Counted from the stretch's first letter, positions 18,601 through 63,050 are shown. The stretch: DNA of 64,000 bases from Klebsormidium nitens (GCA_000708835.1 DF237251.1:43683-107682); one strand, 5' to 3'. A program made the numbers and translations. The notes: generated by a model not told the origin, from the sequence alone.

Positions 18601-21600
18601 CGCATTCGGCACCTCCGGCAGCTGCTAAGATTGGGCAGCCTGATTGATAGGGCATTTGCCGGAGCCTGATCGGGCTCGGGCCGAATCGGGCGGACCCTGT
18701 TCACGCTCCTAGGGTCTATACACACAGAGCGGGTGAACTTTTGGTGAATTCGCCGAGAACCGAAGGTGCTGTTTTGCGAAAGTTTACTTTGACACTCCGG
18801 GGGGTAGCTTCCGCAAGTAAAGGTAGTCCCACGCGACGGTCCAAAAAAATTACCATCGTCACCAGGCTTTTCTTGGGGTAGCAATTCGGAACACCGCGGT
18901 GAAAAAACTGACGTCAGGCCGTACTTGCCGGCGAATTGAAAAGTTCACCTGAGTTCACCCGCGGTGTTTTCTTGGCGACAAGAGCACCGCAACCCCTGCA
19001 GTACCGTCGCTCAAAACCAAGTTCACCCGCTCTGTGTGTAAAGACCCCTAGTGTAACAACCCGATGAATTTCACGGAGATCTTGTCAGCAATTCGGGTTC
19101 CTCCTGCTAAGAGGCCTTGAACTGGGCAGGGCGAACGAGGAACGATCCAACGAAAGTATAACAAGCTGGAGTATGACAACGACTGAACCTCAAACTTGCG
19201 CGACCATTAGCATCCACGCCCAAGGCATAAACCAAGCCATCGGAGGCGCACATGGGCTTGTCTGTGAACACGTGTGCCCTTCCACAGAGGCCGAGCCTGA
19301 ATAGAAGAAGGTCGTTTTGAAACCGAGCGGTGTGCGAATGTTGCTCACAGGCCAATGACCTCGAGGTCGTGCAGGCGGGGGCACGACGCGAGCGCGGCCG
19401 TAACGGCACGCCCGTCAAGTTCCACTACGTTGTACAGGTGCAGGGCGTGCAGGTTGGCACTGCACCGCAAGCGCAGGGATAAAGTGTCAAACTCGACACA
19501 ACTGCAGCGCAACACATGACGGTGGAGCCGGCAAGGGGGATCAGACCAAATGCGCAAGTGGGGAGAATGATCCTGGGCTTGCTGTCCACTTCTGACAAAG
19601 AACTTCAACAAACGGCAGCTTAATGCAAAGGCACGTGAGTTGTTCGAGTAGACAGATGCACCCGTGTGCTCACCCCGCTGCACTCTGCGCTGGGCTGAGC
19701 ACGTGCAAGGAGTGCCTGCCGAGCGGGCAGAGGCGGCCCTTCTCCTTGCCCTGCATCAGCCGCGACAGCGGCAGAGTCTTGTCGGTGTACTCGGGCACCC
19801 ACGCCGGCCGCACGAGGGGGCTGCTGCTGCCGGGACTGGCGGAGGTGGCTAGCGAAGAGCGTCGGCGGGCTGTGCGGGACGAGGGGGAGTGCGCGGCAGG
19901 CAAGGGGGGCTTGGGAAGGACCCCCAGCTTGAGAACCCTGCGCACACGAAACACACAGGAGATGAACATCATTGATGAGCACGGAGATCGATTTCAAGAC
20001 AAAACCGGTTAGTGCGAGGTTTCTGCCTGATTCCTTTGTCCAATTCAAATAAGGCCCTGGGAGAAGTGGTACAACCACGGAGGCGCTGGCAAGTTGCCCT
20101 CATAGGGTTGTTACACTAAGGAAATCGCGATTGGAAAACGGCCCGAGACCCATCAGCCAGACCTCCGGCTGACCTCAGCCTGTAAGAAATTTTGATCGGG
20201 TTGCCCACAACTCGATGCCCCTCGGGTCGGGCACATTACGACTCGACCCGATATTTGCCCGCGCCCCCGACCAAAAACGGGGCCTCCGGCAGCTGCCAAA
20301 TTCGGGCAATGTAAGCAACAGGGCATTTGCCCAAGCCTGATCGGGCTCGGGTCGTCTCGATCGGACCCTGTTCACGCTCGAGTGTAACAAACCTTTCAAA
20401 GTCCTGGTTGACAATACGACAGCTGTTGCAGGACTTCTTTTTGAAAGAGTCGCTCAGGGCAATCACGATCTGTTTCTAAAAGGAAAGCTTACCGCAGGAA
20501 GTGGCCGGCCCTGCGCACAAGTTTGATGACGGTGGCTGATGTCACGTGCAGCCCGCGGGGGACCAGGTCCAACACCTGGAGGAAGGGAGTCGAGGAATCA
20601 CCTACTGTTCCGCCAAGTGAAACTTCCACCATTTCTTGCGAAAAGGGTTTTCAGACAATCTGAGGTTCCACCTTTGGCGACCCGGAAAAAAAAGCTCATT
20701 TTCACACTGATTGGAATTTAACATTCAGCAGTGTGGCGCTCTTTCCATGCAATTTAAGTACCCATTTGATTTCCACATTTCACATCGACCCCAGAATGTT
20801 TATCTTTGGAGTGAGATACCTTGGCAGTGCGGCAAAATCGACCAGAAAGGACGGAAGGAGAAGCTGGGCAGTTGCGAACAACTTTCCAGCCTGATTAGAT
20901 GATACTTTGGCGGGCCCTACAACTGCTGCAACCTTAATTGATGAGAAATACCTTTCAGCTTGATAGACATGGCAACAGACCTTGGTTGACAAACACCCTG
21001 ATTTGCACCATCTTCTCATGCATGTTCAAGTCTTCAATCACTAATACATGGGCTACGATGACCTCATGGTTGGTGCAAGGTGGAGTTGAGTGGGTTTGGC
21101 TACCTCATAGCAGGCGGGGTCTGCTGCTGTCCTGGCGAAGAAGGTGCAGACAGCCGCAGCATGGGCACGGTCGTGGGCACTCATGTGGGAGAAGATCTTG
21201 ACACTCAGGTCCTGCAACAGAGGCAGCCCAGGGAAGAGTTCGTGGGCGTCATTCCTTTGCCATATGGAATCTGAATCTATTTCCAATTCATTTATTTCTG
21301 GATTCACTGGGCAGTCAGGCTTGAGCAATTGGCAACATGAAGGTACAATTGATGGAAATATGGGGCACGCCACCCATACATGGCCCAATTAGGGCACATG
21401 TACAAAAGTACTAAAACTAAGTTCGTTCTGGGAACACATCAATCTTTATGAGGCTGTTGTCTACACCGGCACACTCAGCACTTGGGTGGAGTGTGGCCCC
21501 CGTCACTCATCGCAATTGTGAGGCCCCTTTGCAAGCCCATGCCGAAGGGGCAGAGAACCTGAATTTCAGTTGTCCCCTTGTTTCCTCTCTCAAGTTGGCC

Positions 21601-41000: not shown

Positions 41001-42089
41001 CCAGGAACCTCAAAGGACAGCGGTTCCGTTCCGTTCAAAGTCACACCGGAACCCAGCTTCCGGGGCAGCGGCGAGTACGCCACTGCCGTACGGAACTGGA
41101 CTCCTGCATCGTTACAGTCGACAGCCAGGTTGCCGCCATCGCGAGCCTGCAAAAGCGGGGGGCCAGGGCTGGAGACGAACGGAAAGGGACAACGGAAGCG
41201 CTTGCCGGTGTCACCTAGAGTCAGTGTGTCTCGAGTTTGGATGCGGTTAGCTTGTTGATTTGTACTCAGACCAGAGACCACACCGTGCATTCAAGGCAAT
41301 CTTGCCCCGAGCGCAGCACTTTGGTCATGAGGGGATCCTTCGAAGCTTGAAAGGATAGCTTGTGTTAAAGAAGAAGAACGAGAGACAACTCATGGTCAAT
41401 GGCTGAAATGACAAAGCTGGGCAGATTGTTCGTCAGAATCTGAGATTGGGTTAGCCAGAGATTCGAATAGGGCTAGATTACTAAACGAGCCGAGAATGCA
41501 AGTAGAACCTGTATTGTTTTGGCGAAGTCGATTCCCAGGATCCTAGGAGCGTGGCTTAAGCAGGTTGGCCCGTCGCTGAAAAGCTATGGAAGATACCCTT
41601 CGCTCGGTTCTCACCACGAAGCGTCCAGCCAACGGGGGAATGGCCACCAACGCCTCTGACAGCTTGATGCGGCATGTGGACGCAAATGTTTCGAAGTTTG
41701 TCTCTGCAAAAAGAAACCAAGCAGGCCAACCTTTGTGTTGAATAGTGTGAACAAACACATCAGGCACCAAGTGGTGGGAAAGAGAAGCGTTGGTGACTCG
41801 TTCTGCAGCCAGCAACATTGGCGAGCTTTGTCCCGATGAGGCTCCACACCTTCTTGACGTCTGCTTGTGAAAGACGCAGGGTAAAAATGCAAGATGCATG
41901 GTTTCCACATAACCGATAGTTGACTTTCCGGCATGGGGCCTGTTTCCACTTACCTTTTGGTAGCGGTGGCAAAAAGACGAGGAAGGGGGGGTGGTATGTG
42001 CGGCAGCGCCACATACAGTCCACAACGGACAGCCCCACCGCATGGCGCTTCGTGGGGGTGGCGGGCTGGACCAACACGGTGTTCAACAC
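38069..42089 (-). CDS. BAHD-family acyltransferase-like protein with non-canonical motifs, multi-exon
   Basis: N-terminal VQPATPT..GLSVVD; VPLLLMQV|THF..CVSFGFHPMFTDGWG; STDDALSALLWRSITAAR; GYVGN; ASLDLGFGQP (DFGWG variant). The 5' start is not resolved. Confidence 0.8.
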
Positions 42090-42499: not shown

Positions 42500-43600
42500 T
42501 CTGTTTTCGAAATGCTGATTGCAATGCTGCCTTGTCTCCTGACTTGTCTCCTGTAACTTGCTTCTCGAGAGTTCCAGGGCTGACTTGAAAATTCAGGTCA
42601 ACCAGGTCGCTAGTCAGAGGTGGCGCTGGCGAGGTCTGGCACGTTGCGGCAGGTCTTGGACCTGCCTGATTCTTCCCGACGTTTCTCGAAGAAGGCAGAA
42701 GATTCTTGCTGAGTCAGCAGCCTGATGACTCAGCACAGCTGGCGCCGGCACCCAATGGCGCTCTCTGGCACCCTCTGGCAGCATTCTGAGCTCGATTTTA
42801 TGGGTTGTCAGGGTCTTTCTCTTCATTTCTTGACAGAACAAAGGGTCCAAATCTGGAGGGAGCTCTGGACCAAGCTCGGAAGCTGGCAACCTGCGTTCAG
42901 CGCTTGGTGCATGCAGGCGCGTGGACATGCTCAGGTAAGAGCGACTTCCTTCTCATTCTTTCTGACAATGCCGAGGGCCTGTGCTATGTGCTCCAGAATG
43001 GATGCTTTCCAAGTCTCAAAGAGGGGGCGCTGGGCTGATGTCCAAAGTCGGGGCTAGCCCCTGCTTGTTCTTTTGAAGGGGGCTGCCCCCTCGCAGCACC
43101 AGGGCTGCCCTTAAAGATCGGGGTCAGCCCCTGCTTTCTTCCGTGGAGGAAACTGCCCCTTCACAGCGCCAAGGCTGCCCTCCAGAGCCAGGGGCAGCCC
43201 CTGCTTTTCAATGATTGGGGGCTGCCCCCTCGCAGTGGTTGCCTGGTTAGCAACTTAGAAACGTGTTTGTAGGCAACTCAATTCAATGATATATTCCACA
43301 TGCATTCATGGGCATATGCATCTTGTGCAGGCTGATTGCTCTGCGACAACAGAGTGTGTGGACTGCCGCGTCGCGCCCCAGACTTTATGGTGAAGCTCTT
43401 GTTCCCGGGCTTGTCTGGTTCTGCAGCTGCCCAGCCCTGCATGCTTTCAGGCCTATGCTTCCAAAGTGGGACTCCTTCAGCCGTTGCCTACATCAAATGC
43501 TCACATGAGCTCAATCGCTCATTAGTGCGCCCCCAAACTCCGAGGAATCTCTTGATTGTTGTTCCCTCATGTTTTTGCAGCAGATGGCAGAGACGCCCGT
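42500..43600 (+). pseudogene. Diverged relic copy of the upstream region of the large primase-helicase gene (paralogous to ~50180-51300)
   Basis: QHSWRRHPMALSGTLWQHSELDFMGCQGLSLHFLTEQRVQIWRELWTKLGSWQ (42725-) aligns with QYSWRWHAMALFGILQQNSELALMGSNGPHTHFSERERVNFWKELCDELRRWQ (50403-). Both end at an equivalent CAG|GT donor, and DNA similarity extends upstream. Confidence 0.6.
43050..43236. repeat. ~70-bp tandem repeat x2.6 with short GC palindromes
   Basis: Units start at 43050, 43120 and 43191, with motifs GGGGCTAGCCCCTGCTT and GGGGGCTGCCCCCTCGCAG. Confidence 0.75.
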
Positions 43601-46237: not shown

Positions 46238-49200
46238 TCAGCGCACAGTTTCCTCTGCCTCCGCAACCAGCTCTAGCAACAACTTCTTCTCTAGAAGCTG
46301 GTCCTCTTCTGGTGCGGTTTCTTGCACGGACTCGAAATCACACAGGATAACATGATCCTTGTCAACCAGCAGGTTGTTGAGGGAGAGGTCCCCATGAAGG
46401 AGACGCGCCGCATGGAATCGGTCAAGTGCGCTTGTAGCTGCGGCAACTATTGCAGGCGTTCTCGCCGTGTCCTCCAGAGGGGCACCTGCAATCGAAAATA
46501 TCTTTAAAAACGAAGACTCTAGTTCCAAAATCAACACATCGCTTCAAGAAAAGCGGAAAAGCGGCAGAAGCAAAAGCATGCAATGCATACAAGCAAAGCT
46601 TCCTGACGACGAGCAAGAGCAAGGAAAGGCAAGGAAAGACGCGGCCAGCATGCGTTGCTTTTGAAGACATCCCTCGACAGAACGGTCAAGAACGGTCAAT
46701 ATGGAGCTTGTATGCACGGTCAATATGGAGCTTGTATGCAGAAGACTACTGTAAAGAGCGGCTCACCTTCATATGAGAGCGCGAGGAAGGGTGTCCCCGA
46801 ATGGGGCAGCAGGCCGTACTTGATCAGGCGGGGGATCACTTGTCCCTGCAGCGCCGCGTACTCGCTGCTCGTGTACAGCGCAAACTCGCGCTCCAAGGCG
46901 TCAGCTGATGCTCTCCTCCGCAGTTCGTACTTTTTTATGACGACGGGCTCCCCGTTGATACTCCCCTGCAAAGCAAAGGGTGGCATATTTCCAAAAAACG
47001 CCCAAATCTCCGAGGATGTCTAGAAGCAGATAAGGTTCAATGTTGTGCTTAAAAGTCAGCTTATTTGTTGGTTAACGCACATCGTCTAAGCACACACAAA
47101 GCACCTTAAGTAACTCAGGCTTCGCCAGACAAGTCAAACCATAGCGCCTCCTTTGGCCCCGCCCTCTCCTTATGCTGCATAGACCAGAGAGGACAGGGGG
47201 CCGGATATAAACGCGCACTTTTTGTAAATCTACACTCTGTGCATTGGTCTGATAAACTTCTCAGTCAAGCTGCCAGATGTTTTTGTCTGCTGGCAGCTTC
47301 GAGCAGTTCTAACGGTGGCGCAGTTGAAGGGAGACTGCTCCATCATTCCTGCTGCTTGTGCTTCTTCAACTTTTCAGACAACCAACTCAATGCTTGCCTA
47401 ACCCTGCTTTATGGACTTTGATGGATCGATCCGTCACCTCCCTCATGTGGAAGTTTCCGTAGATTTTGGAGAACAACAGACTCGTATGCTGGTTGGAAGC
47501 AAAAGTGCCGTGAGGCCAGAGGGGGAGTGCAGGAGCCTCTTTGTCCGTCCAATCACCTCGAAGAGGCTGCACACATATGGAGGCACCCACAAATGAAGGC
47601 AAAAATGCAGACAGGGTACACATCTGATGTAGTAACATCTTGCCCCTTTTTTCCTAGAATCATAAGAAAAGTTTGGAGACTCACGAAGATGAGGTTGCCA
47701 TGGCGACCGCTTGCCACTAGGGTTCCTTTGTACCCTATGCTGCCAAAACTTGTGACCTGGAAATCTTCCAGACTCGTTGCCCTTCTTTTCCGCTTCCCTG
47801 AAGTTGGTCGGGGAGTTGGTGCCTTCACAGAGAACGGGAGAGGCCTCCTGCAATGGATAACAAGCAAGACATGTGTAAGAAGCTCTGCATGGTACTCTCA
47901 AGAGAAAGCCGGACTTGCAAAAGAGCGCAGGCCTACAGATCTGTGATGCAGATTGCCAAGCTCTATCTGCGCTTCCAAGCTGTCTGAAGACTGGTCTTGC
48001 TCACAAAACCTGATTACTATGCTGAATGCAAGAGGCTTCATCAGCTCTAAATACAACACAACCAAGTCCCAAACCTGCAGGTTCTCAGCTGCATGGCCCG
48101 TCATTGTGCAGGGTCTAAACAAATTTGAATCAGGTCGCAAACCAACTATTGCTTCATAGACTACAAACAGCTACAAATTGATGCTCACGTGACTCTGCCT
48201 CGAGTGGTACTTGTTGGCAACTGAGCGACGGTGTAGCCCGCGACTGACGTGACTGGCACATCATCACGTGGCAGCCGGTCCTTCAGCGCCCTCCCCTTCC
48301 AGCACAGATCCAGGAATGTACAGGTTGCTGCGATCAGGCTGGGGGATCCCTCGTCTTGCCAATAAATTCGTGAGCAAAACAGGGTCTTTTTGAGCACGTC
48401 AGGATGGCGCGCCAGGAAGACGATTGCTTCATAAGTGGAGAGCATTCCAAATGGGGCCTCATCTTCCACCATGTCACCAAAAAGCTGCTGCAGGGCCAGT
48501 TCCACCTGCTTTCGCTTCCTTGGGTCCCTCAACAAGAGCTCGATGGAGTCGCCCTTGACCAGTTTCAGCTGCCAGTTCCCTTTGACCTCCACAGGGCCGA
48601 GAACCAGGTCACTACTCTGCGGACGGGCTTGCCCAAGCAAAGATCTGATGGCGACTACTTGGTCTGTATCGGATGCTGACCGCCCTGAGCCTCCTGACAC
48701 AAGAACTGCTCCACACCCCACCGTCTCAACAATTGCGTTCGCTACATTAGCTACATAGGTCATGAGAGGGGCTTCCACCGTCCCCTCTTTTGCGGCAGGG
48801 CTGAGTGGCTTTGCCCCTTCCTGGACACCTTGCTGGAGTTTCTGGAAAAGCAGATACTGGTCATCCAAGGAATTTACAAAATCATCCACTTTCCCTTCAA
48901 ACTCATTCCAAGGGAGAACTTCCTCGAAGGTCCTCGCATGTTGAGGTTGTGTTTTTGAATGAGACCGACGCGGGGATGTTCGAGCTGCAAGCTGTGGTGG
49001 CACCTGTTTTGCTGCTTGACGAGCAGTCAGACGACCCACAGAAAGCACGGACCGGACGCGACGAGGCACATCGTCTAGAGGAGCACCCTCCAAACAGAGT
49101 TGAAAAACAACCGATGTCGCTGGATCTTTCAAACAGTCCAATGCTGCGCTTTTTTCCCCAGGGTGTAGACCGGTGGAAGACTGGATTAGGTGCTCTTCAC

Positions 49201-49284
49201 GGGACGCCATGCTTCCGTGCGCTTTCCACCATAAATCTTCCTGCAGAGCAGTCTGACTGTCCGAGCCATTGGCTGCGAACCTTC
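46238..49284 (-). CDS. Crinkler/CR-effector-like PD-(D/E)xK restriction-endonuclease-fold domain fused to an atypical protein kinase; at least 4 exons, 5' end in gap
   Basis: REase-like TDQVV..GPVEVKGNW..ALQQLFGDMVEDEAPFGMLSTYEAIVFL. Spliced kinase: LVASGRHGNLIF|GSINGEPVVIKKYE..LQGQVIPRL..LALSYEG|APL..LLHGDLSLNNLLV..VILCDFES. Intron phases 2, 0 and 1 are all compatible. Confidence 0.8.
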
Positions 49285-49669
49285 NNNNNNNNNNNNNNNN
49301 NNNNNNNNNNNNNNNNNNNNNNNNNNNNNNNNNNNNNNNNNNNNNNNNNNNNNNNNNNNNNNNNNNNNNNNNNNNNNNNNNNNNNNNNNNNNNNNNNNNN
49401 NNNNNNNNNNNNNNNNNNNNNNNNNNNNNNNNNNNNNNNNNNNNNNNNNNNNNNNNNNNNNNNNNNNNNNNNNNNNNNNNNNNNNNNNNNNNNNNNNNNN
49501 NNNNNNNNNNNNNNNNNNNNNNNNNNNNNNNNNNNNNNNNNNNNNNNNNNNNNNNNNNNNNNNNNNNNNNNNNNNNNNNNNNNNNCGGTACACGACATAT
49601 ATGCGAACCTTCGACCAAAACCTAGCGAGACCTACCGTACCCATCTAACAATGTAACAATTTCAACGTA

Positions 49670-49935
49670 CCGTATCAATTTTGAATTTCGTCGTTCACGG
49701 TGCCGAATGATTAATTACAAGTTGAATATTGCTTTCGGCAGTCCGACAGATACTTTTCGGACGGTTCGGCACAGTACCGGATCACGCGGTCAAAATGCTC
49801 ACAATGCTGCTGAAATGACGTTTTTGCTGTCTCAAACATATTCCAACTTTTCGGCACAGGGTCTCCATATTCTCCGAAATATTTCGGCAGGGCAAATAAT
49901 TATTTATTTTTTGCCGAAATTAAAAATTGATACGG
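49670..49935. mobile_element. Tc1/mariner(pogo)-type MITE, 266 bp, AT-rich
   Basis: TA|CCGTATCAATTTTGAATTTCG ... CGAAATTAAAAATTGATACGG|TA: 21-bp TIR with 1 mismatch and a TA duplication. Confidence 0.8.
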
Positions 49936-51618
49936 TATAAGAAAACCAGTTGGCGCGACATTGCAACCCAGCCCCGGGCGTCGCCTGCTGTATAAGCTAT
50001 TAGCCATGACTGCTCAAAGGGCCCAGCATTCACCATTACCGCGCTCTGGTGAACCGTTTCCATGTCACCACGGGCCAGCCTGCTGGCTTCCTGTCCAAAA
50101 TCAAAGCACTCCCTCCTCAGGCTCAGCAGAGCAGAGCAGCGAGGTGATGCTTCAGGTTGCTCGTGTGGGCACATCACGGCGTCTGCCAGCTTTAAAATGC
50201 TGGCTGCATTGGTACCATGCCTTCTTGAAATTGCTTCTAGAAGTTTCGAAAGGTGACTCAGAATCCAGGTCACCAAGGACAGGTGGCGCTGGCAAGGTGT
50301 GGCGCTTTGCGGCGTGCTGCGGCAGATCTTTAACCAGCTTGCATTGCAGCCAAGTGTCCTGCCATGTGGCCCTGAAGATGCTTCTCTGAGTCAGCAGCTT
50401 AGGTGCCTCAGTACAGCTGGCGGTGGCACGCAATGGCGCTCTTCGGCATCCTGCAGCAAAATTCGGAGCTTGCTCTGATGGGGTCCAACGGTCCCCACAC
50501 TCATTTTTCAGAAAGAGAAAGGGTAAACTTCTGGAAGGAGCTCTGTGACGAGCTCAGGAGATGGCAGTCTGTGGTTGGTGCGCCGTGTACGCACGCATCT
50601 GGACAGCGTCAGGTGAGAGTCTTGCTTTGGTAGCTCTCTGACGCAACCTTCAAGCACAACCTGTACATATCTGTGTGACAGCAATGAAGTTGGGTTTGGC
50701 ATGTCTGCTGTGAGTGGATGTTCTCGATCTGGAAGAAGGGGCTCGTTGTCAAAGCATGAACTCATCAGTGCGACTGGGTCAGCCTGACTTTTGTGGTCAT
50801 CACCAACATGCAGTGAGTTTGGTAAGCAATGGGCATACGCATACTGGCAAGAACCATGCATAAGAGGGCTGACTTCCATAGGTTTCCAGATGCAAGTTCT
50901 GCAGTCAGCATGGGTGACAAGTCGATGAGGGTGAGAATTGCAGTGATCTGAGCCTTGATATGCTGCTGTTGGGTTGAAAGCTGAACCTACCTATGTTATG
51001 CATGCAGGCTGAATGCCCACTAACAGCAAAGAGCGTAGTCAGTAGCGCTGCGCACCAGCCCTTGAGGTAAGCCCTTTGCTTAGGCTTCTATGCTCGTGTG
51101 GCATGCGGACCTGCGCACTTGTACATTGACAGGATTCTGCGCCAAAGTGGGACTCATTTATCTGATGTCTACACTTGAGATTCAGTTGCTTGTCATGCAT
51201 TCTGAGACTCCGAGGGGTCTGCTGAGCAATCATTGTCCCTGTTCTGCAACAGATGGAAGAAAAACCGCTGCAACGCAAGTCGGCAGCCGCGGTGTGTAAG
51301 AGCAAGGCAGGCGACCATGCTGCTGATCTGGGCTCTTTCTCTGTGGTGAGCCCTTGATTGTTGGGAATATGATGCACTGATAGACTCTGCCATGAGCACA
51401 TGGTTAGGTCCGAGGATTTGAGGGCTTAGGATGCTATTTGTTGCAGATTGTCAGGTTGCTTCGCGTTGTGGTCGTTGATGGACAGGGATTCAGATGGTGT
51501 GCAGTAGCTCATAGGTGCGTTTCTGCAGAACCTGAGGTGCAAACTGTATAATTGTCAGAAGGGCCCACGCCCCTCACGCTTCCTCAGATGCATGCTGACA
51601 CGTCAATTCCTCCCGCAG

Positions 51619-54600
51619 GCGACTCCTGGTGTACCCTGCACAATGCTCTCCCGCTGTCAACCATAAAAGCAATCGTGGCAAGCGCGGCGCGGGGCTTTCT
51701 CACGAAGTCGAAGAGAGGCCGTCGCATCTTCAGGAAGGTGGCGGGAGGCGTGTGCGGGCGCGCCAAAGATCAGCTTGGGCCTGACGGCCTGCGCTGGACG
51801 AAGGCGGCCTGGGTAGGGGGCCTGCGCGCGGCCATGGCTGGGCTTGAGGCGCTCGCGGGCACTCCTGATGCAGGCCTGCAACAAGGCTTCAAGGAGGTCC
51901 TGACTTCGATCGCGCAGGCCCACTTGGAGGGGTTGCAGCAGCAAGCCAGCGCTCCCTGCAGAGGTCACAGGACGTCCACAAGCCCAGCGCCTGCGAGCCC
52001 AGCGGCCGTGAGCCAGAGCCGGGCCCCAGCTGGTGGCACATCCAGGAAAGCGAGGAAAGCGCGGGAGGAGCTTGCCAGCTACCTCTTTGGGGACAAGGGT
52101 GAGTAGCGCCACCTTGATCGGGCCAGCTCCATTGAAGCACCTGCCCGGGCCTTTGCGAGAGTCTGCTACAGGGCTTTTGGGACTACTCATGCTCTAGGGT
52201 CAGGACTTACGAGCTCGAGTGTGTGAACAGGCATATGAGAAGGCGAGACTTCTATGCCTACTCGAGTCAATCAGAGCTTCACATGTGTTCCGTTCCTGAG
52301 CCCAACTCTTCGTGCTTTCTCTTCCAGTGCCACACGGCCTCCTCTGCGGAGAATGCAGCAATCCCGCGACCTTTGGGGTGCGCGGGGGCAAGGAAGGGGG
52401 CAACCTCAAGTGCTTCTGCGGACTGCATCGCCCGTTCAAAAGCTGCTTCCAGATTGAGACGGCACGGGCAGGTGAATTCTGATTGTGCCAGCGCACCGTG
52501 GCCTTTGCATCGGACACTTGGCTCTTGATTCTGTCGGCCGCGACCTGTGGCATCGTGCAAATGTGCAAACTGTAGATATACAGGCATGTGGGGTGTCGCC
52601 AGCAAGCCTGTAAATGTCCTGCATGTGACATCTGCTTTGTGCCGTGTTTTTCAGAGTGTTTTTCAGAGTGGGCACGTGCTCGTGAAGTGTACAAGTTGAA
52701 GACGGAGTTCAAGCAAGCGCTTGATGAGGAAGCGGAGCGCGAGAAGTAGGGATGGTGAGGTTTTCGTGGGAAAAGAGCAATTCGGCTCTTGCTCGTTCAT
52801 CCTTAGATCCAGCTTGCTATCCGACTCCAATCAATATCTCTGCCTTCTGTACTTTGCTTGGTCTTGCTCAAGTTCCTTGAAAGCTCACCTCTTCGATGTC
52901 TCTCTGAGAGTATTATGTCGAGCTTGGGTCGTGCTCACACCTTTAGGCCGCTATGAACCTCGCGTGCTCACGTGCCCACTCAACCCGTTTGCTTCTCTTC
53001 CACAGCATGCGATGAATACCAGCATGACAACTTCTGGTGGGATACGACTCCAAAAAGCAGGCTCATCATTGGTGCCTCATTGGGAAGTTGTCGTCTGGTG
53101 ACAAGGTGTGGTCCTTGACCGGTTGCATGGCCGGTCGGACTCTCTGGACCACACCTTGCACATGGCTTTGGAGTGCTGAGAGCGAGTTTCCTTATGATTA
53201 TTGACAAGGTGTGGTCCAAGGCCGAACCTGCTTGCCACATTCTTCTAAACGGCCTGTACGGCGGGTCCGACTCACTGAAAAGTTGGACCACACCTTGCAG
53301 ATGGCTCTTGCTAGCAAAAGAACAGACTTCCTAAGAATCATTGACAAGGTGTGGTCCATGACCGGATGGCCGGTCTGACTTGCCGGACCACACCTTGCAC
53401 ATGGCCTTACAGTGCTGAGAGCGGGTTTCCTTATAATCATTGACAAGGTGTGGTCCTCTGGACAAACGCGTGCATGCCACTTGCTTCTTTATGACCCGGA
53501 TGGTCGGTTTGGCTTGCTTGACCATCATTCGCATTCATTTTGCAGCAAAGCTACTGCTGATCGGTGGAGTCGAGAGCAACCCCGGCTGGCCAGCGTCCAA
53601 GTCACAGTGGAACGAGGATAAGGACTTACCTGTCCTTGATGTCGGCCCTCGTCGTCAGCTTGTGATCTTGCCCTCTCGAGAGGTGAGGACAAGCCCATGC
53701 CGACTCAACAACTTGCAGCACGCGTCTGTGACAGCTCATAACTCACGAGCGCAGTGCTCTGCTTCAAAGCGTTGCTTGAGAGTATCAGAGATTATGCTGA
53801 TTTTGGAAAGAGGGCGTCATCTGAACTCGTATACCTGAGCCGAAACCTAGTGGTACTCAGGACGAGAAGCTGTTGTGCAGGATGTCGAACGGAGCTGGCG
53901 GCCCGCATCTGCTCAGCACGCTGTTCAGCGTGATATTGAGGCGTTTGAGAAGTGGCGCAAGCATGCGGAGCTCTACAAGCAGGTGAGCGGCTGTTACAGT
54001 CAAGGCGCATAGGCATGACACAGTGATCGAACACGATTCTCAGCGCTCGTCTTTGGCCACTCATTGCTCTTCCAATAAGCACGAGTATCACTTTCGAAGA
54101 CTCTTTGCAAGTCAATCGAGAAGGACAGCGGATCCGCCAATACTCCGCCACCCAGAAAGCTGCGCACAGCACCCCGTTCAGCTTAGGCATTTTGTTTGAC
54201 CTGTTGACCTCTCCACATTTCAGGTGGACGCCAGCCGTGCGGATTCGGAGGGAGACATTGCCGCACGAGCATCTGACCACGTGGTCCCCGGGGCCATCGA
54301 AAGGCTGGGGTCCACGGAAGGGATGCCGAGTGCGGCTGAGGTTTTGCTTCAGAGAGAGCTCAGTCATCAGGACAGGATAGAAGACGGTCTTCTGACTGCC
54401 CTGGTAAGTTTCGAATCCTCGTTTCATTGCTCTAGCACCGTGTCAGGGAGTTGTTACAAATGCATCTCCCTTGACTTGCAGAGCCAAGTATTTTGTGTCT
54501 TTTTAAAGGGAAGTCGAAGTGCTGAAGGGCCAAAGAACCGTGCCAAAACAGCCTACAGTCTTCATAATCTTATCAAGAAGCGAAGGCCAGCCTTTCGTTT

Positions 54601-57600
54601 TGACTGGATCTGCTGCGCATCTGATCAGATGCACGGATCAGATCAGGCGACGATGCACAATCAGTGAAGTGCTGCAACGTGTCTCTCCCCGTCCTGGTTG
54701 TAGGATCACATTGGGGATGGAATTGTGGTGATGCGCTCATCATACTCTGACCGAATGTCACTTATCGTCTTTTCAGGTGGAAGACAATGGAGTGGATGCA
54801 GAGGACCGGCGATCTACTTCGATGAGAGGGATCGCGGGCATTGCAGTCGAGAACGTGGTTTGCGGCACCACAACAGAGGTGAGAAGTGACCGGAGCGCGG
54901 TCAAGCTATATAAGTTGCACGCATCTCCACATTTGGGCAGCGCCACACAGATCCCCTCTCGGATTTTCGTTCCCTTCTCGTTCTAGAAAGCGGTCTATTA
55001 GAGTTCTGCTTTTTGGGCAAGAATTGCATTAAGCAATGCTACCGTGCTCAGATTTGGAGCTGCTGTGATGCTTCTCAGGCAGTGACTGGAGAGAAGATTG
55101 TTGAACTCGTCTACTGTTTCTCGCATGTCTCTTTTAATAGCGTGACCTTTTCGAATGGGGTTGGCTCCAGATGGTCGGATGCCACCGCTACAAGGAAAAA
55201 ATCCGAGATTTTCTGGACCGCATCAGCAGTTTGTCCGACGGCCTGTCTTGCTTCCACAGAATGCACTCGGCCCTGATTTGCATAAGGACGTCTCTTGGTC
55301 ATTCGCTGACGAAATCCCCATCTCTTGTCCAGGAAAGCGGCGGCAACCAGCTGTCGGCGACAAGTGCGGCCAGCGCATCCGGTTCCATGCGGTCAAGATC
55401 CGAAGAAGAGGGCGAGGACATTGAGGGGGCGGAGTTTGAGAGCATGGGCGAATCTTCGGACGAGGAGACATCCCAAGATCGAGACATGATCGACGACAAA
55501 AGCCAGGACGAGGAGAACCTGGTTATTGCCCGAGGCAGAATGCGCGCGGCCCAGGAGTCCGACTCCGAGGTGGACGTTTCTCAGCTTCTGGGTCGGCGCT
55601 TCAAGCTGCGAGCGCCGGGACAGGCGACGAAAATGATCCAAGCCGCTTCCCCGCCCTCACGATCGGAGTCCTCTGCCGAGTCCGGCTCTTCCGCGAGCCA
55701 CGGGCGATGCGCGGGGGCCCTGGCTGATCGGCAGCTGGCGCCGACCGCAATGGAAACGGATTCCGAGTCGGACGAGCTTCCCGTGCGCCGTAAGCGCCTA
55801 GTTTCCGATGGGGCAACCCGCTCTCCACAAACCAGGCGGCGCCGCTGGGTGCTGCTCTCATCATCGGAGTCCTCGGGTGAGAACGGCAACGTCTGGGCAA
55901 GGCAGAGCGATGCTGCTGGGTTGGACGAGGAAGTGCAGCAGAGGGGGGGCAATGAGCCCGTGCCTGGTGACAGTGCCAGCTCCGATGATCCGCCAGAGCT
56001 TGAAGACGATGGCTCTCTGGACGAAGTGGACTTTGGGGAGGAGTTTACGAATCTGTGCGTGATCGTGCCGCGTCTGCGGCAAGCGACCATTAGTCAGGTG
56101 AGCGCCATTTTAATCTGGATATTCTGCTGGAGTTCGGGCCATCCGCGAGGTGTGGTCCGGTCAGTTAGGCCGCCGGTAAGTTGGACCAGCCTTCCCTCCC
56201 ATCAAGTAAGCAAATGGCGGGCACTCTAAGCACTGGACCACACCTTCTCNNNNNNNNNNNNNNNNNNNNNNNNNNNNNNNNNNNNNNNNNNNNNNNNNNN
56301 NNNNNNNNNNNNNNNNNNNNNNNNNNNNNNNNNNNNNNNNNNNNNNNNNNNNNNNNNNNNNNNNNNNNNNNNNNNNNNNNNNNNNNNNNNNNNNNNNNNN
56401 NNNNNNNNNNNNNNNNNNNNNNNNNNNNNNNNNNNNNNNNNNNNNNNNNNNNNNNNNNNNNNNNNNNNNNNNNNNNNNNNNNNNNNNNNNNNNNNNNNNN
56501 NNNNNNNNNNNNNNNNNNNNNNNNNNNNNNNNNNNNNNNNNNNNNNNNNNNNNNNNNNNNNNNNNNNNNNNNNNNNNNNNNNNNNNNNNNNNNNNNNNNN
56601 NNNNNNNNNNNNNNNNNNNNNNNNNNNNNNNNNNNNNNNNNNNNNNNNNNCCCGTTAAGTAAGCAAATGGCGGGCACTCTCAGCAGTGGACGACACCCTT
56701 TGGACCACACCCTGTCAATGATTCTTTAGGAAGCCTCCTGTTTTGCAAGGAAGAGTCGTATGCAAGGTGTGGGCCAGTGAACTTGGTGTCGTAGCCCATG
56801 ATGCGATGCCCTTTGAGAGTTGGGCGTTCCCCTAAGTAACTGCGATGCCGCTCTGAACCAAGCGAGCGCTTGGTGCTCGGATGCAGGAGCTCGCAGGGCG
56901 CGATGGGTTTATTGTGGGCGGAAAGAGCTCCCAGACGCCCGTCGGTACCAGGATGCGGACCGGAGGCCCGTCCACTGTGGTGAGCAGCTGCGCAACTCGA
57001 GTTCGCTGCCATATGTGCAACACTGCCTCTGAAAGAGCATTTCAGTGCCGGGTGCTTGTGTGCAACTGGTGGGGAGCGAGAAGCATCGGCCCTGCTTTCA
57101 GTAGAGCATTGGAATTGAAAGCCTCTCCTCGTGTTCAATAGAAAGTGCCAAGCATCTAGAGCCCGATTGGCTGAGGCGCACACGCGTTTCCCTTCCTTGA
57201 AGGTTGCTCAGCGAGACCAACTCTGTGCTTGTAAAGAGTCGCTCTGTCCTTTTTTCGAAAACACCACCTTGACGTGGTTCACTGGCAAGCAGTCTTGTGA
57301 TCATCTGGGTTCTGAAGGCTCTCAGGCTGGTAATCGTGTCCCTTGTCTGCATGTGCGCAGGCAGGAGGCGATGGTCGGGACGCGGCCCAGCATGTGAGAG
57401 ACACCCGCGTTGCAGAGCTCGCCGAGCCTCAGGCCGTGGACGCGGCTCCAATCGTGCAAGTAAGCGTTCAAATATCGTGTTCCATCATTATTCAGAGAGG
57501 ACCGGAATTGAAAGATCATGGAAGCCATTCGAAAGGTTTTCCGACCAGATGTTGCGCCACTTGTGCGGAGTTGACCAGTCCGTTTGCCTCTGGTCGTTCA

Positions 57601-60600
57601 AACAAGCAAGTACGCCGTATGAAAACACGGCAAGTCCGGTTCCGGGATCACAAGGTCAACAAGTAAGCATCTCCATAGTACTCTCTGAGATCAATCGGCT
57701 CGTCCTGTTCTTCCTCTTCGTCGAAGTAACGCACATCGAGGCCTTCGGGATCTGTATCCAAGATAGATCGGATGTATTGCTCGACCGAGGTTCTGTCAAA
57801 GTCTTCAAAGCCGCCAGCCTCGGTAAAGTCCTTCAACAAAGCCGGCCAATCCAGCTCGCTCGTGTCACCACATGTGCCCGACCAACAAAGGTCGTCGATT
57901 GCTTGCGTAGCTGCCACCAAGAACAGCCTCGCCCTTTCGCAAGTCTCCTGGTCAGTGCTGTCAAGCTTGAACAGATCTTGTACCAGCTCCGTCGTGATGG
58001 GCATTCCATTTGCGATGGTCATTCCAAGTGAGAACTTGTCTTTGTTGGACAGACCATTTTCCTAAGTGCAAGTTTAAGGAACCAACACAGCCGCATCTCA
58101 ACCTCGGCGGCCGGTGAAGAGGGCTCCCCGACCCCGTCAATACCTATCAGAGACTCGGTCTGCTTTGCATCATCTAAAGACACTTTGCTTTCAACTGTGC
58201 AGGTGGCTTCCTTCCGTCGGCTGTCGGAAGGGGAAGTTGCTGTCCACAGCGAGCACGACGGCAGGCTGCTGACGACGAGAACGAGGGTGCTGGGCACCTT
58301 CTTCTTCGCAAAGCGCAAGTTCACGAGGGAGCCCGTCGACTACCGAGATTCGAAGGACGGGCCCCAAGGCTTCTGCAGGCGGTACGGAGAGGTCCTCGGC
58401 CACCGGGTGGAAGTCCGGCGCCTGTGCCCCTCCCGCGAGTTCGGTTCCTATCCCGACTGGCCCACGGCATACCCTAACCTGCGCGGGCAGCGCCACCTGG
58501 AGGAGGCGATCAAGGCGGGGTGCCCATGCAAGCCCTACCTTGACCTAGAGCGGGACGGGGGTTTGGCGGAAGGGGAGACGCTCGAGACGGTCATCCAGGC
58601 CTTTGAAGCGGCCATCAAGGACATCTTCCGGGAGGACTACAACATCGAGCTGCCCCCCAATTCCTTCAACTGGCTCCCCTGTGACTACGGGCCCGGCGGC
58701 AAGTTCAGCTTGCACCTGGTGGTCTCGACCCACTCCCCCCAGTTCGTCTTCCACTCCAACCTGGCTGCACCCGCCGACCATCAGGGCGCGGGGCACCTCG
58801 CCAAGGAGCTCGCCCGACGCCTGCCCCCGCGGTACGCCGAGCTCATCGACCAGTCGGTGTACACCAGGAACCGGGGGATCCGGCTCCCGTACTGTTCAAA
58901 GCTCGCAACCCCTCGCAGCCGCCTCATCCCCTTGGACGAGAGCAAGCCAAACGCCGATGCGTGCATCACTTGGCTGGACGAACACGTCCAGATCAATCAA
59001 GTGCCGACCAGCCTGCCGGACGCTGTAGCCGAGCCCCGACGCCCCCGTACCAGGCCCGAGCACTTTCGGTACCAGAACGCCACGACAGCGAGCGCGTACA
59101 CGGCCCAGAGGTGTACGGAGCTGGTCCAGACCCTGCATCCGACAGCGTACCGCAGGGGCTCCTTGTCAGCGAGCTCTCTGAACTTTAGCTGGCACGACCG
59201 GAATGAGCCGTGCTATTCGGGCAACGTTCACGAGGGCTCGCGGGACATCCTCGTCATCGCCGATCCCAAGCGTAACGCTGTCTTCGCCAAGTGTGATAGC
59301 GCGCGCCTGGATGCGGGGACGGGTTTGTGCTGCAAGGAGCTGCCGGCGCGGTACCTGGGCCCGTTCTACGCGGACGTCAAGACTTGGAAGGATGGGGCGG
59401 TGGAGGTGAACATGCGGTACCTGGAGCGGAAGCCGCTGGCTGCGGCGCCCATGGACCTGCAGCTGATTCGCGGCGGGTTCCGGGACCTGACGGACATGGT
59501 CGTGTTCAATGACGTTCTGAACAAGTGAGTGTCAGCGCTTTGTTTGTAGACAAGATCAGCCACATCAAGGACCGCCAGTCTTGCATAACTTTTGCCAGTG
59601 CGTATGCGAACTCTGCGCGTGGTCTGTGAGCGAAACCTTGAAGTGTAGATTGGACAAATCCAACAGAAACAGGCCCCATTCTTTGGATTTTGAGGCCGTT
59701 CAAGATGTGGTCCGGACAGCTAGTGTTTGGACATCCAAGTGTGGACCACACCTTGCCAATATCTCATAGGAACCCTGCTCTTTTCATTCTTAGGCCGAGC
59801 CAGATGTGGGGTGAGGGTCAGCCAGCCCTAAGTCAGTCTAGCCGTTCGAAAGCCCATGGCGAGCAGGGTTTGGTCTTGGACCACACCCTGTCGATGTTAT
59901 TTAGGAACTTGCCTTTTGCTAGAGGAAGTCTTTCACAAGGTGTGGTTCAGCCAGTCGTAAGGCAGGCCAGCCATCTGGCCTTTCAGAAGCATGTTGCGAG
60001 CAGTTCTGATTGACTGGACCGCACTTTGTCAATGATTCTTAGGAACCGTTAGAAAGAGTCTTACCCAAGGTGTGGTCCAGCCCGTGCGTAGATCAGACCG
60101 GCCATTTAGGCCGTTGAAAAACATGGGGCAATCAGTCCTGGTTAACTGGACCACACCCTAACAATGTTTGTAAAGGATCCCCCTCTTTTCTGAGCCGAGC
60201 TTTGTGCAAGGTGTGGTCCAGTCTCGTGTGATGCTTCTGGATTGGCTTCTTTCTTGGTGGTAGTGTGAGCCGCTTTTCAAGGCAGATCGACACTGAGGAA
60301 GGATGTTGCAGGTCAAGGCTTTTGCAAATGGGACAACACAGTCGCCTTGGCTGTGCAATTGGACCCACATGTTTACTTTCAGCTGGCTCATGCCAAAGCG
60401 ACTCCTTTTTGCAGGTGGCAGGCTGGCCGCTACAAGGCGGCGCTGATCCGAAGCCCCATGGACACCGCAAAGTCGACGACCACCCGGGCCATCATCCAAG
60501 AGCCCCCCCGACCAGAGACGGCCCTCGCGATCACCTATCGGCAAACACAAGCCAGCGATGCAGCCGGGAAGAACCCTGATTTCGCGCACTACGGCGAACT

Positions 60601-62533
60601 GAAAACGAAACGCGGGCGCGAGGTCGGGGAGCGCTTCATCGAGCCTCTCGCCGACAGGGAGCTCTACCCGCGCGTCATCTGCCAGGTCGACAGCCTTCCC
60701 AGGCTCCTCGGCGACCAGGCATGCGCTCCGGCCTTTGACCTGGTCATCCTCGACGAGAGCGAGTCAATCCTCGCGCACCTCTCGGCCGACACCCTCTCGT
60801 ATAGGCAGGTCATCATCCGGCTGATCGTCGAATTGCTTCGACGCGTGCGTCGAGTCATCTGCCTGGACGGGCATCTGGGGCAGCGAACCTTTGACTTCAT
60901 GACGCTGCACGGGATCCGCTGTTCCCCTATGATCATCAACAAGCACGTGCCAGAGCGGCCTCTCCAGTTTGAGTTCCTTGAGGGGCGAGCAGGGCTCCAA
61001 ATATGGGAAAGCGGAATCTTTGAGGCGCTCGAGGCCGGCCAAAACGTCTTTGCAGTCAGCATGTCGTCGGACAGGGCGCGGGACCTGGGCAGCGTGGTTG
61101 CAGAGCGGGGGCTTGTGGACGAGGGGCAGATTCTCGTCATCACGCGGCACTCTCACAGGGAGGTGAAGCGGGGCCTTGGAAACGTGAACGAGAGCTGGGC
61201 AAAGCGGCTCGTCATTATCAGTCCCACGGTGGAGGCAGGGGTGGACTTCAACCAGCCATGGTTCCACCGGATGTTCCTGTACATTTGCAGGAAAAGCACG
61301 CACCCGCGGGGGCTCGACCAGATGAAGGGGCGGGTCCGGCAGCTGGTCGACCCAATGGTCCTGTGCTTTGTCGGGAAGGGCATCAACTTGCCGACGACGG
61401 GGCCAGAGGGAAGCGCGTACAGGACGGTAATGGGGAAGAATGCTGGAAGGGTCCCGAGGCTGGGGGTCGAGGAAACGTACCAGTGGTTCCTTAACCGGGA
61501 TGAGAAGGTCGGAGCGGGGGTTTTCTGCGAGGGCGCAACCACCCGCCTGCTCGCGCACAACGAGAAGGAGCTATTCAATGGCCGGACGCACTTTTACGAG
61601 GAGTTCACGGAGCTGTTGGAGAGCGATGGCCACGTCGTGAGGGGGGTGCGAGTCCTGGACCCGGCCGTTGGGGGTGAGCCGGGCAGGGGGGAACAAAGTC
61701 GGGGCAAGTTTACGCTCGAGCAAATGATCGCCGCCTCTGACATCACGCCTGGTCAGTTCGCCGCCATCGAGGGTCGGGTCCGCAGGAACGAAGACTACCC
61801 GGGGGAGAGGGTGCAACTGAAGAAGTACCAGCTGGCACACTTCTACCGCGTGCGGCAGTTGGACGCCAACTTTCTGCGGACATTTGGCCCCTATCCGAAC
61901 CTTGCGGTCGAGTTCATCTTGCAGGTCGTTGTACCTCGGTACGAGTCCGACAGTGAGGAGATTGGGCGGCAAAGGTACGGCCCCCAAAAGGCCGAAATTG
62001 CAAAGGAGTTGCTGCAGGTGATGGGCTTTCCGCACCCCCTCGCCCACGAGCACGTCACCAGGCCCCTTGCAGAGTTGAGGGAGGAGCTGGCGGCCACCAG
62101 CTACTTCCGGGATTACTCTGAAACCGTGAAGCTGTTCCAGGCACGCGCCCTCCCAAACCAGGATGTCCTGGCAAAGCAAAAATCGGCCACGATCGCTCTG
62201 AACCACGTCTTTTCAGAGCTCGGGTTGCAGCTCGTGGCCATGCAAAACAGCCGATTGCCGCGGAACGCGCAGGGGCGAAGGGGTGCTCGTATTTATGGGG
62301 GGTGGAAAATGCTGCGGAAGCCAAAGACACGGACACGGCCAGTCGATGGGCCGGTAGGGGTAGATCTCATGGCCCAGCTCTTGAAGTTGCGACTCAAAGA
62401 TTCACCTGCTCTAAAGTCGCGAATCGTTCCCGCAGCATTGAGAGAGTACGTTGATGGGGTTCACTTCAGGTGGCCGGCGATGGTGAACCAGGATGACGAG
62501 TGTCAAATCGTAGTTAGGATGCCTAGATCGTAG
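51619..62533 (+). CDS. Large spliced gene (~1,850 aa, 5' end probably further upstream to ~50403): Cys/His finger - 2A-like motif - acidic region - AEP primase/Zn finger - UL9-like SF2 helicase
   Basis: Exons 51619-52098, 52328-52471, 53546-53682, 53881-53982, 54224-54403, 54777-54878, 55333-56097, 56887-56979, 57361-57459, 58203-59524, 60415-62533. All have YAG acceptors and GTRAG-like donors; phases 1,1,0,0,0,0,0,0,0,2 keep one open frame (5543 nt). Joining of the upstream exons is a prediction. Confidence 0.6.
53102..53456 (+). repeat. Palindromic-box repeat array, cluster 1 (intron 52472-53545)
   Basis: Full units GGACCACACCTTG-46/47 nt-CAAGGTGTGGTCC at 53146-53217, 53285-53357 and 53385-53456, plus a lone box at 53102-53114. 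Confidence 0.95.
56148..56775 (-). repeat. Palindromic-box repeat array, cluster 2 (intron 56098-56886), partly hidden by an assembly gap
   Basis: Boxes at ~56148-56158 and ~56235-56246, and a full reverse-oriented unit at 56702-56775. AAGTAAGCAAATGGCGGGCACTCT occurs on both sides of the N-gap. Confidence 0.85.
57648..58022 (-). CDS. Intronless 124-aa acidic ORF nested antisense in intron 57460-58202
   Basis: ATG at 58022 to TGA at 57648; helical, protein-like composition (ELDWPALLKDFTEAGGFEDFDRTSVEQYIRSILD). No family recognised. Confidence 0.5.
   Translation of the reverse strand: MTIANGMPITTELVQDLFKLDSTDQETCERARLFLVAATQAIDDLCWSGTCGDTSELDWPALLKDFTEAGGFEDFDRTSVEQYIRSILDTDPEGLDVRYFDEEEEQDEPIDLREYYGDAYLLTL
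58203..59524 (+). CDS. Exon encoding an archaeo-eukaryotic primase (PrimPol / herpes UL52 / NCLDV-type) plus C-terminal Zn-finger-like region
   Basis: Motif I KPYLDLERD, motif II KFSLHLVV, motif III IDQSVYTRNRGIRLPYCSK; Zn-ligand pattern EPC..VH..AKC..LCC. Confidence 0.9.
59701..60219 (-). repeat. Palindromic-box repeat array, cluster 3 (intron 59525-60414 between primase and helicase exons)
   Basis: Units at 59878-59948, 60016-60078 and 60148-60219, a degenerate unit from 59743, and a box at 59701-59713; period ~132-138 bp. Confidence 0.95.
60415..62533 (+). CDS. Exon encoding an SF2 helicase of the herpes UL9 / NCLDV replication-origin-binding family
   Basis: Walker A-like RSPMDTAKST, Walker B DLVILDESES, motif III VICLDGHL, motif V IISPTVEAGVDF, motif VI DQMKGRVRQL; long C-terminal region. 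Confidence 0.88.
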
Positions 62534-62728
62534 TTGGATAGACCACCTGAGATGCTCTAAGATAGAGGATCGAGTGCACTTTGAAATCACATGCGAATTG
62601 AATCATTGACGATGCGGGCTTCTCAATGTGCCCTATTGTGATGGTCAATGTGTCGCCCCTTCTTGGATGTGCTCATGTGAACGCTCTTCGAAGTGCGTGT
62701 ACGTGGGAAGCAAGTGACCTCTCCGGTT

Positions 62729-63050
62729 TGACCACACCTTGTCATTTCATTACCGAATTTATACCACTCACAGTGTTATTCTTCATGATGAAGCCCAATG
62801 CAAGTTTCGATCTACTCACTTGTCAGTCAGACCGGCCATTCATGCCATTTGGAAGCATGTGGCGAGCAGTTTCGGTCCTGTGTTGGACCACACCTTGTGA
62901 ATAGTTATTAAGAGTTCCACTCTTTGCTAGGAAGAGCCATATACAAGGTGTGGTCCGGCCGTCCATACGTCAAGCCGGCCATCTAGTTGTGGACCGTACG
63001 TTGTCAGTACTTCCATGCAAGTCTCCAGAGCCATTTGCAACTTGTGGTCA
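62729..63050 (-). repeat. Palindromic-box repeat array, cluster 4 (3' of the helicase stop)
   Basis: Full unit at 62885-62956, with degenerate units starting at ~62729 and ~62991. Confidence 0.9.

Follow-up and report, generated by a model that had tools for sequence, protein, structure and literature searches.

The 64,000-bp stretch of Klebsormidium nitens DNA analysed here (GCA_000708835.1, DF237251.1:43683-107682; referred to as the window, with positions counted from its first letter) contains a primase-helicase gene with clusters of inverted 13-bp boxes in its introns and 3′ flank. The locus raises the question of what these boxes are, and whether they belong to the protein encoded around them, as proposed in the initial annotation, which took them for binding sites of a UL9-like helicase.

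Inverted-box arrays in the introns and 3′ flank

Allowing up to 2 mismatches, a search of the window for the 13-mer gave 24 matches, compared with a mean of 1.84 and a maximum of 7 in shuffled controls. As 22 of the 24 were located within 53102–62956, the box arrays are real. The remaining two (at 41275 and 50293) are at chance level, in line with the initial annotation, which had noticed no arrays in the first 53 kb. Plus and minus boxes alternate in most cases along the arrays and bound units with inverted ends of 13–14 bp. The annotation had described at least eight full units of 63–74 bp; we counted eight from box to box (72, 73, 72, 74, 71, 63, 72 and 72 bp), in addition to a degenerate 60-bp unit at 62991–63050.

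Array 1 (53102–53456, minus strand) has 7 exact boxes and 3 full units, recognised by box matches at 53146–53217, 53285–53357 and 53385–53456, and lies in the opposite orientation to arrays 2–4, which are all on the plus strand. Array 2 (56146–56775) comprises 4 boxes and 1 full unit (56702–56775), and is interrupted by a gap of 401 N bases at 56250–56650. At this array, contigs return from 56778 to 56651/56661, which suggests further monomer copies within the N gap or elsewhere. Array 3 (59701–60219), with 8 boxes and a period of 132–138 bp, lies between the primase and helicase exons; its full units, also identified by box matches, are at 59878–59948, 60016–60078 and 60148–60219, and another unit, starting from 59743, has a degenerate right box. 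Array 4 (62729–63050) is in the 3′ flank, 196–517 bp past the stop at 62533, where its single full unit (62885–62956) starts 352 bp past the stop and has degenerate neighbours. A palindromic minisatellite of unrelated sequence was also observed at 43033–43230, within an intron belonging to a 5′ fragment that is a paralogue.

Arrays 1–3 were assigned to spliced introns (53106–53545, 56098–56886 and 59525–60414, respectively) because contigs join their GT..AG ends, at about 53103/53544, 56094/56884 and 59524/60415. These contigs came from four runs that are presumed to be RNA (they are not recorded as such), and whose contig depth is unfit for ranking expression. In one isoform the donor at 53106 is supplied by box 1, so the first 4 bases of that box are exonic, while another run used a second donor at 53071. 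The claim that the boxes avoid exons thus held for the arrays, three being intronic and the fourth in the 3′ flank, with the exception of these four bases.

Pairwise identity among the units was 0.90 and 0.96 in the two boxes versus 0.59 in the interior. Since the units had been found through their boxes, we added to the count five degenerate boxes from the array edges, with 3–6 mismatches each. Even with these included, mismatches were found at 34 of 351 box positions (9.7%) versus 94 of 358 interior positions (26%; Fisher p 9e-9), and the boxes are indeed much better kept than the sequence between them. The long spacers outside the units are also homologous to one another (56–78% identity, z 2.3–10.9 in 10 of 10 pairs). 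The repeat therefore consists of unit plus spacer, a diverged monomer of ~100–155 bp, so that box conservation stood, whereas the unit alone is not the repeat. Similarly, the regular period of ~135–140 bp held for only part of the arrays: four of the eight measured steps between units were 132–140 bp, and the others were 99, 103, 106 and 156 bp.

With a profile built from the interiors only, hits below E 4 in the window were limited to the eight training units and a ninth, at 59758, whose right box is decayed. The AT content of the interiors (0.59 vs 0.49 in introns without arrays) is modestly enriched. Tandem Repeats Finder did not detect the arrays, and no match to the exact paired-box pattern was found in the viral or prokaryote contigs searched.

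A primase-helicase of a multi-copy gene family

The RNA-supported exon chain gives a single open frame of 1,640 codons that ends at the stop at 62533; some of the spliced contigs are identical to the window copy, and paralogues account for most of the depth. Upstream spliced exons (50143–53105, plus strand) include a Cys/His-rich exon at 52328–52471; exon 52655–52754, as read in the RNA-supported chain, has a stop that parts these upstream exons from the long frame. The 1864-aa database protein P0019, named Klebsormidium nitens and 100% identical in the primase exon, omits two exons and thereby fuses the upstream exons to the long frame. Seven small or low-complexity exons (53546–57459, plus strand) are in frame with the primase-helicase, and the first of them has a motif, LLLIGGVESNPGW (53551–53589), which we take to be 2A-like.

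The primase-polymerase (AEP) exon (58203–59524, plus strand) was labelled from the Pfam DNA_primase_S matches of the aligned relatives P0025 and P0030 and from its motifs KPYLDLERD and KFSLHL, a pattern that is presumably of AEP type. It is followed by the exon for a UL9/CyRepA1-like SF2 helicase with a mainly helical C-terminal domain (60415–62533, plus strand). The domain order of the product is AEP primase, then Herpes_ori_bp helicase, the latter being matched above cut-off by Pfam PF02399. The CyRepA1 model NF042913 matched P0019 with an E value of 5.6e-37 and 127.9 bits, which is below its curated cut-off of 200 bits.

Structural comparison of the helicase exon (model pLDDT 91) identified the origin-binding protein of HSV-1 (9hgi) as its best PDB match, with E 1e-18, Z 25.2 and rmsd 3.7 over 377 aligned residues. 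Together with the Herpes_ori_bp match, this bears out the earlier description of the helicase as UL9-like. In the viral library the best fold matches were giant-virus replication origin-binding proteins. When the whole exon was aligned, model residues 1–671 were placed onto UL9 66–833, reaching the C-terminal part of UL9, at an rmsd of 14.6. When modelled by itself (pLDDT 92), the C-terminal domain, encoded by about 61688–62485, had no Foldseek match in PDB at E ≤ 0.001, and a second structural comparison gave nothing above Z 2.9 and no match to the UL9 DNA-binding domain; plasmid RepE, at Z 2.9, was rejected as being within noise.

In the family alignment, the Walker A motif of the window copy is degenerate (MDTAKS, 60458–60475, plus strand), while its Walker B is intact. 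The same MDTAKS is present in 4 paralogues, making 5 of 16 family proteins, and the other 11 have an intact G[ST]GKS. No transposase or recombinase families were detected in P0019 or 7 relatives.

The family includes eight further proteins named K. nitens and several others at 57–66% identity. Summed DNA contig depth in run X1, which is a rough guide only, was ~21 in 44–48.7 kb, ~140–150 in the helicase exon and 507 at 53332. The unit depth is thus ~24 times single copy, versus ~7 times for the helicase exon, which fits several units per paralogue and also fits independent arrays. Contig joints (53321 to 53194, 60221 to 62852, 60079 to 62825 and 59760 to 62917) point to other tandem arrays of the monomer.

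The surroundings are those of host genes, with ORFs in 1–52 kb matching DnaJ, glutamine cyclotransferase, retinoblastoma, TPR and transferase families and a kinase-like frame. No capsid, A32 ATPase, polymerase or integrase was found among the 122 ORFs of at least 112 aa in this region, a scan which short exons escape. Giant-virus inserts have been described at other places in the K. flaccidum genome (PMC5294986, in the part of the article available).

A profile search returned 3,788 relatives, many of them primase-helicase fusions of ~1,050 aa. In a midpoint-rooted FastTree of helicase cores (127 of 131 sequences, 4 being left out), the Klebsormidium proteins formed one clade (support 1.0), nested among metagenomic fusions and apart from both CyRepA1 and the small A32-ATPase viruses; this tree names no donor. 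No locus turned up in scans of metagenomes, whether these used the family alignment or a degenerate coding pattern.

Inverted repeats at the gene ends of relatives

The position of array 4 is where relatives carry an inverted repeat, at the 3′ end of the primase-helicase gene. Two viral contigs have an A32 ATPase and a primase-UL9 gene followed by a palindrome of 71–72 bp, and in L002 the palindrome is present in three copies at 119–120 bp. All seven small viral loci of the A32-ATPase type (five of them distinct) have a palindrome of 71–73 bp directly 3′ of the gene, in 1–3 tandem copies with a period of 119–163 bp, and within ~45 bp of the coding end if the in-frame TGA of four loci is read through. 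Among the CyRepA1 loci of bacteria in GTDB, a spaced repeat of 50–67 bp near the stop is frequent.

We examined this tendency in distant relatives of the Klebsormidium clade by a test written down before the scan results, in which the 1-kb tile around the stop was ranked for its best spaced inverted repeat. Among the new viral loci, the stop tile was top-ranked in 8 of 27 (2.18 expected, P 8e-4). The same test gave 7 of 16 for plasmids (P 0.009) and a non-significant 3 of 11 for GTDB (P 0.07), with a window size that was chosen after part of these data had been seen. Three primase-only loci (L048, L050 and L051) were left out of the tests, and another three (L060, L074 and L058), with no 3′ flank or a short frame, were left out of the ranking.

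As gene ends are rich in hairpins, we also compared these stops with the ends of other ORFs of at least 200 aa, scoring a repeat within 500 bp of the stop. L072, L084, L047, L010, L011 and L002 were left out of this comparison as near-duplicates, and L054–L056 duplicate other loci. In the new viral set the repeat was scored at 10 of 25 gene ends versus 18 of 156 other ends (p 0.001), in the GTDB set at 8 of 11 versus 8 of 63, and in the first viral set at 6 of 8 versus 6 of 43; in plasmids the difference was not significant (8 of 15 vs 3 of 11, p 0.18). All sets together gave 32 of 59 loci versus 35 of 273 other ends, numbers for which a pooled p value overstates the case since related loci are not independent. 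The remaining 27 of the 59 relatives had no scored repeat; L052, L003, L004 and L005 had none, and pSYSA showed no clear inverted repeat.

In 29 of 32 cases the repeat has a centre with more AT than its own locus, an excess that its intergenic position explains in part. Tandem or dispersed copies were found in L006, L007, L008, L012, L014, L062 and L067, and two bacterial loci (L019 and L021) have two copies bracketing 5–10 kb that include the gene. In two plasmids a protelomerase adjoins the gene. L049, which is 27% identical to a member of the nearer clade, carries at +356 an almost perfect palindrome of 55 bp, along with a decayed second copy; the array-4 unit of the window is at +352.

The 13-mer pair of the window was present in none of 85 relatives' loci at up to 3 mismatches. 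The repeat sequences differ between groups, as would be expected if each protein had its own site. Since a spaced inverted repeat is much commoner at this gene's end in relatives than at the ends of other genes, the idea that the boxes are cognate sites of the encoded protein is partly supported by an independent comparison. As a separate observation, in 5 of the 27 bacterial loci 9-mer pairs resembling the window box (up to 2 mismatches) coincide with the repeat near the stop; stray pairs occur elsewhere in these loci too, and the resemblance is a lead only.

Candidate origins and competing readings

We lean towards reading the arrays as amplified copies of an oriS-like cognate origin belonging to the enclosing, virus-derived primase-helicase family. 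The gene family was probably inherited from a DNA virus or a virus-like replicon.

In HSV-1 oriS, two inverted boxes flank an AT-rich spacer and are bound by UL9 dimers via the C-terminal domain, as described in the available part of PMC12543377. The window has in common with that system a helicase of the same SF2 family, inward-facing boxes and an AT-richer spacer. On the other hand, it differs in its N-terminal primase fusion, its box sequence, its span (72 bp vs ~49 bp, the 49 bp of oriS being our own count), its arrays, which stand in tandem within the introns of an alga's nuclear gene, and its C-terminal domain, which alone did not match that of UL9.

CyRepA1 (Slr7037) is essential for replication of pSYSA, with priming placed upstream of the gene (PMC9978351, available text). 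CyRepA1 proteins resemble the window product in having a primase-type N-terminus and the same helicase family (E 5.6e-37), and several members have an inverted repeat of 48–67 bp near the stop; the cyanobacterial loci L044 and L046 are examples in which the repeat is clear. The window protein, at 128 bits against the 200-bit cut-off, belongs to a separate clade, and the cyanobacterial N-terminus is DUF3854/Toprim-like rather than AEP, according to the accessible part of PMC10079941.

Fusions of AEP to a UL9-like helicase are reported for mimivirus R8, ASFV pF1055L and mriyaviruses in PMC11253617, whose available text describes no cognate DNA site for them. These fusions have the domain order of the window product, AEP then UL9-like helicase, and giant-virus proteins gave the top folds in the viral library; the window gene differs in being spliced, multi-copy and located among host genes. 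Loci L001 and L006–L011, which we read as Polinton-like or virophage-like viruses, also have an AEP-UL9 gene followed by a 71–73-bp palindrome in tandem at 119–163 bp. They are only ~20% identical in the helicase core and are not the sister group; their arms are fully palindromic and of another sequence, and they have capsid and packaging genes, none of which was seen in the window.

Arrays of ~70-bp palindromic units in tandem are also known from the baculovirus hr regions, which resemble the window in this respect and differ in belonging to an unrelated replication set. In HHV-6, tandem origins arise and replicate more efficiently (PMC5923074, in the part available); the multiplication in tandem is comparable, whereas the HHV-6 repeats are ~1 kb long and were selected in culture.

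Based on this comparison and the cited systems, the ancestral element would have had a single site past its stop, of which array 4 may be the descendant. The monomer would then have been amplified in tandem and copied into introns, where it escaped coding constraint, and selection for protein binding would have preserved the boxes while the interiors drifted. Protein dimers are predicted to contact a pair of inward-facing boxes by means of the C-terminal domain; spacer opening would fall to the helicase and priming to the AEP, as in the HSV-1 UL9/oriS scheme with the primase built in. Copies of the locus might thus re-replicate or amplify in the nucleus, which could account for the spread of the family. 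Because of its degenerate Walker A, the window copy is predicted to bind without unwinding, relying on paralogues with an intact motif, and the arrays may now be relics.

Several observations speak against origins: the degenerate Walker A itself, a C-terminal domain that matched nothing, relatives lacking the repeat (27 of 59), the distance of the relatives compared, pSYSA, with no clear repeat and with priming proposed upstream, and the unrelated intronic minisatellite at 43033–43230. The last of these implies that palindromic intron arrays can arise without any link to a primase-helicase. The arrays could be a generic intronic minisatellite, or what is left of a small transposon, having spread together with the repeat-rich gene, the boxes being conserved by inverted-repeat conversion, by a host factor or through the way the units were found. 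The multi-copy nature of the unit, the other tandem arrays in the genome, the decay of the edge boxes (3–6 mismatches) and the inversion of array 1 would all agree with this explanation. Yet all four arrays are in one gene and none is among the many host introns of the other 53 kb, the excess conservation of the boxes holds with the decayed ones included, target-site duplications are absent, and the same kind of repeat is found at the same gene end in relatives; we regard such a minisatellite or remnant as unlikely.

The MITE identity, which the initial annotation had named as an alternative, was discarded: inverted ends are present, but none of the eight units has a target-site duplication of 2–10 bp, and the flanks are homologous spacers instead of unrelated sequence. 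With these duplications missing, a degenerate Walker A and a score below the 200-bit cut-off, we did not class the locus as a member of MITEs, of UL9/oriS or of CyRepA1.

The boxes might instead be bound by the encoded protein as operators or tethers for transcription or splicing, with the helicase-dead copies acting as repressors of the family. Three of the four arrays are intronic, a splice donor is within box 1 with the second donor at 53071 also in use, and the subfamily with the degenerate Walker A is expanded, yet otherwise keeps an open frame with spliced contigs across it. However, in the intron-less viruses and plasmids the repeat either follows the gene or overlaps its 3′ end and is not at the promoter, and we consider a purely regulatory function rather improbable.

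Another reading takes the inverted boxes as recombination or integration sites (of att-, res- or resolution-type) for a recombinase whose gene lies elsewhere. In Polinton-like viruses, inverted repeats that adjoin the primase-helicase gene have been proposed to serve integration as well as replication (PMC11296320, available text). The repeat copies bracketing 5–10 kb in L019 and L021 and the protelomerase beside the gene in two plasmids would also fit. Against it, no recombinase or transposase family was detected among the 122 ORFs of 1–52 kb or in the gene product, and the arrays are within the gene rather than at visible ends. The spacers of ~46 bp are moreover long for tyrosine-recombinase cores. 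Altogether, recombination sites have only a slight chance of being the explanation. A small structured intronic RNA, such as a snoRNA- or pre-miRNA-like hairpin, would suit the ~72-nt length, the 13-bp terminal stem and the intronic position, but it was rejected as highly improbable given that a Rfam search of 52–64 kb had no match at E ≤ 5, the interiors added no folding signal beyond the boxes (z −2.1 to +1.4, 32 folds), array 1 is antisense to the others and, as a weak point, the array 3 bin is almost without contig cover in the four RNA-like runs.

Returning to the origin reading, we found no account of this family or its repeat in Klebsormidium in the literature searched, nor of a 3′ inverted-repeat rule at AEP-UL9/CyRepA1 genes, for which an entry in a repeat library or supplement could exist. 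A wider proposal, which we put forward tentatively and with some doubt, is that a spliced nuclear element without capsid or transposase spreads in Klebsormidium by its own primase-helicase acting on intron-borne origins, while its helicase-dead subfamilies are carried along by intact ones, and that the 3′ repeat of AEP-UL9/CyRepA1 genes serves as an oriS-like origin in general, common to plasmids, herpesviruses and DNA viruses both giant and small.

If the arrays are such origins, a herpes-style pair of origin and initiator works, or once worked, in the nucleus of an alga related to land plants, its origins being housed in introns, and offers a route to gene amplification that requires no transposase. 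For the UL9-like replication proteins of viruses and plasmids, the comparison names a concrete candidate origin, a spaced inverted repeat of 46–80 bp at the 3′ end of the gene, which, if the wider proposal is right, would give many replicons that lack a mapped origin one that can be tested directly.

Other repeats in the window and the gene beside the primase-helicase gene

A further array, with a 70-bp period and palindromic GGGGCAGCCCC-type boxes, was identified at 43033–43230 of the window and is unrelated to the box arrays of the primase-helicase gene. It is intronic and lies inside a fragment (42.6–43.6 kb) that shows 70% similarity to the 5′-terminal part of the primase-helicase gene (50.3–50.6 kb). 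The gene adjoining the primase-helicase gene (46241–49282, minus strand) is spliced and has a kinase-like C-terminal frame, whose RIO1/Pkinase matches were below or near the cut-off. Just upstream of the primase-helicase gene, an AT-rich stretch of 270 bp (49668–49937) carries 23-bp terminal inverted repeats and was found in multiple copies among the DNA contigs; it is probably a MITE. Another possible mobile element is located at 18428–20379, where a direct repeat of 280 bp (79%), its two copies lying at a distance of 1.67 kb, encloses a 29-bp inverted repeat pair (18712–19047).

Repeat copies and in-frame TGA codons in related loci

Two copies of an inverted repeat flank 5–10 kb, with the CyRepA1 gene inside, in the bacterial loci L019 (219–10739), L021 (4205–9686) and L017 (28–5446). 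These loci may represent small replicons, circular or arranged in tandem. In the viral contigs L062 and L067, the repeat located at the stop codon of the helicase gene occurs in 3–4 dispersed copies, an arrangement resembling that of baculovirus hr.

Four small A32-ATPase-type viral contigs showed an in-frame TGA at an equivalent position of the primase-UL9 gene, ~400 nt from its end, after which the frame runs on (L001:5050–5463, L007:2178–2582, L008:5611–5997 and L009:2850–3245). Since the place is shared, the frame continues and the L006 gene has no stop at this position, the sequences suggest that the TGA is read through.

N-terminal regions of the primase-helicase paralogues

The 1,640-codon open frame of the primase-helicase gene carries at its start the peptide motif LLLIGGVESNPGW (53551–53589), which we take to be a 2A-like peptide, with the canonical D and the final P absent; its counterpart in the paralogue P0014 is LLIIGGIEPNPGW. 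N-terminal extensions differ among the paralogues P0020, P0021 and P0014, and P0020 has a ubiquitin-like domain, which suggests that the 5′ exons of the primase-helicase paralogues were captured or shuffled.
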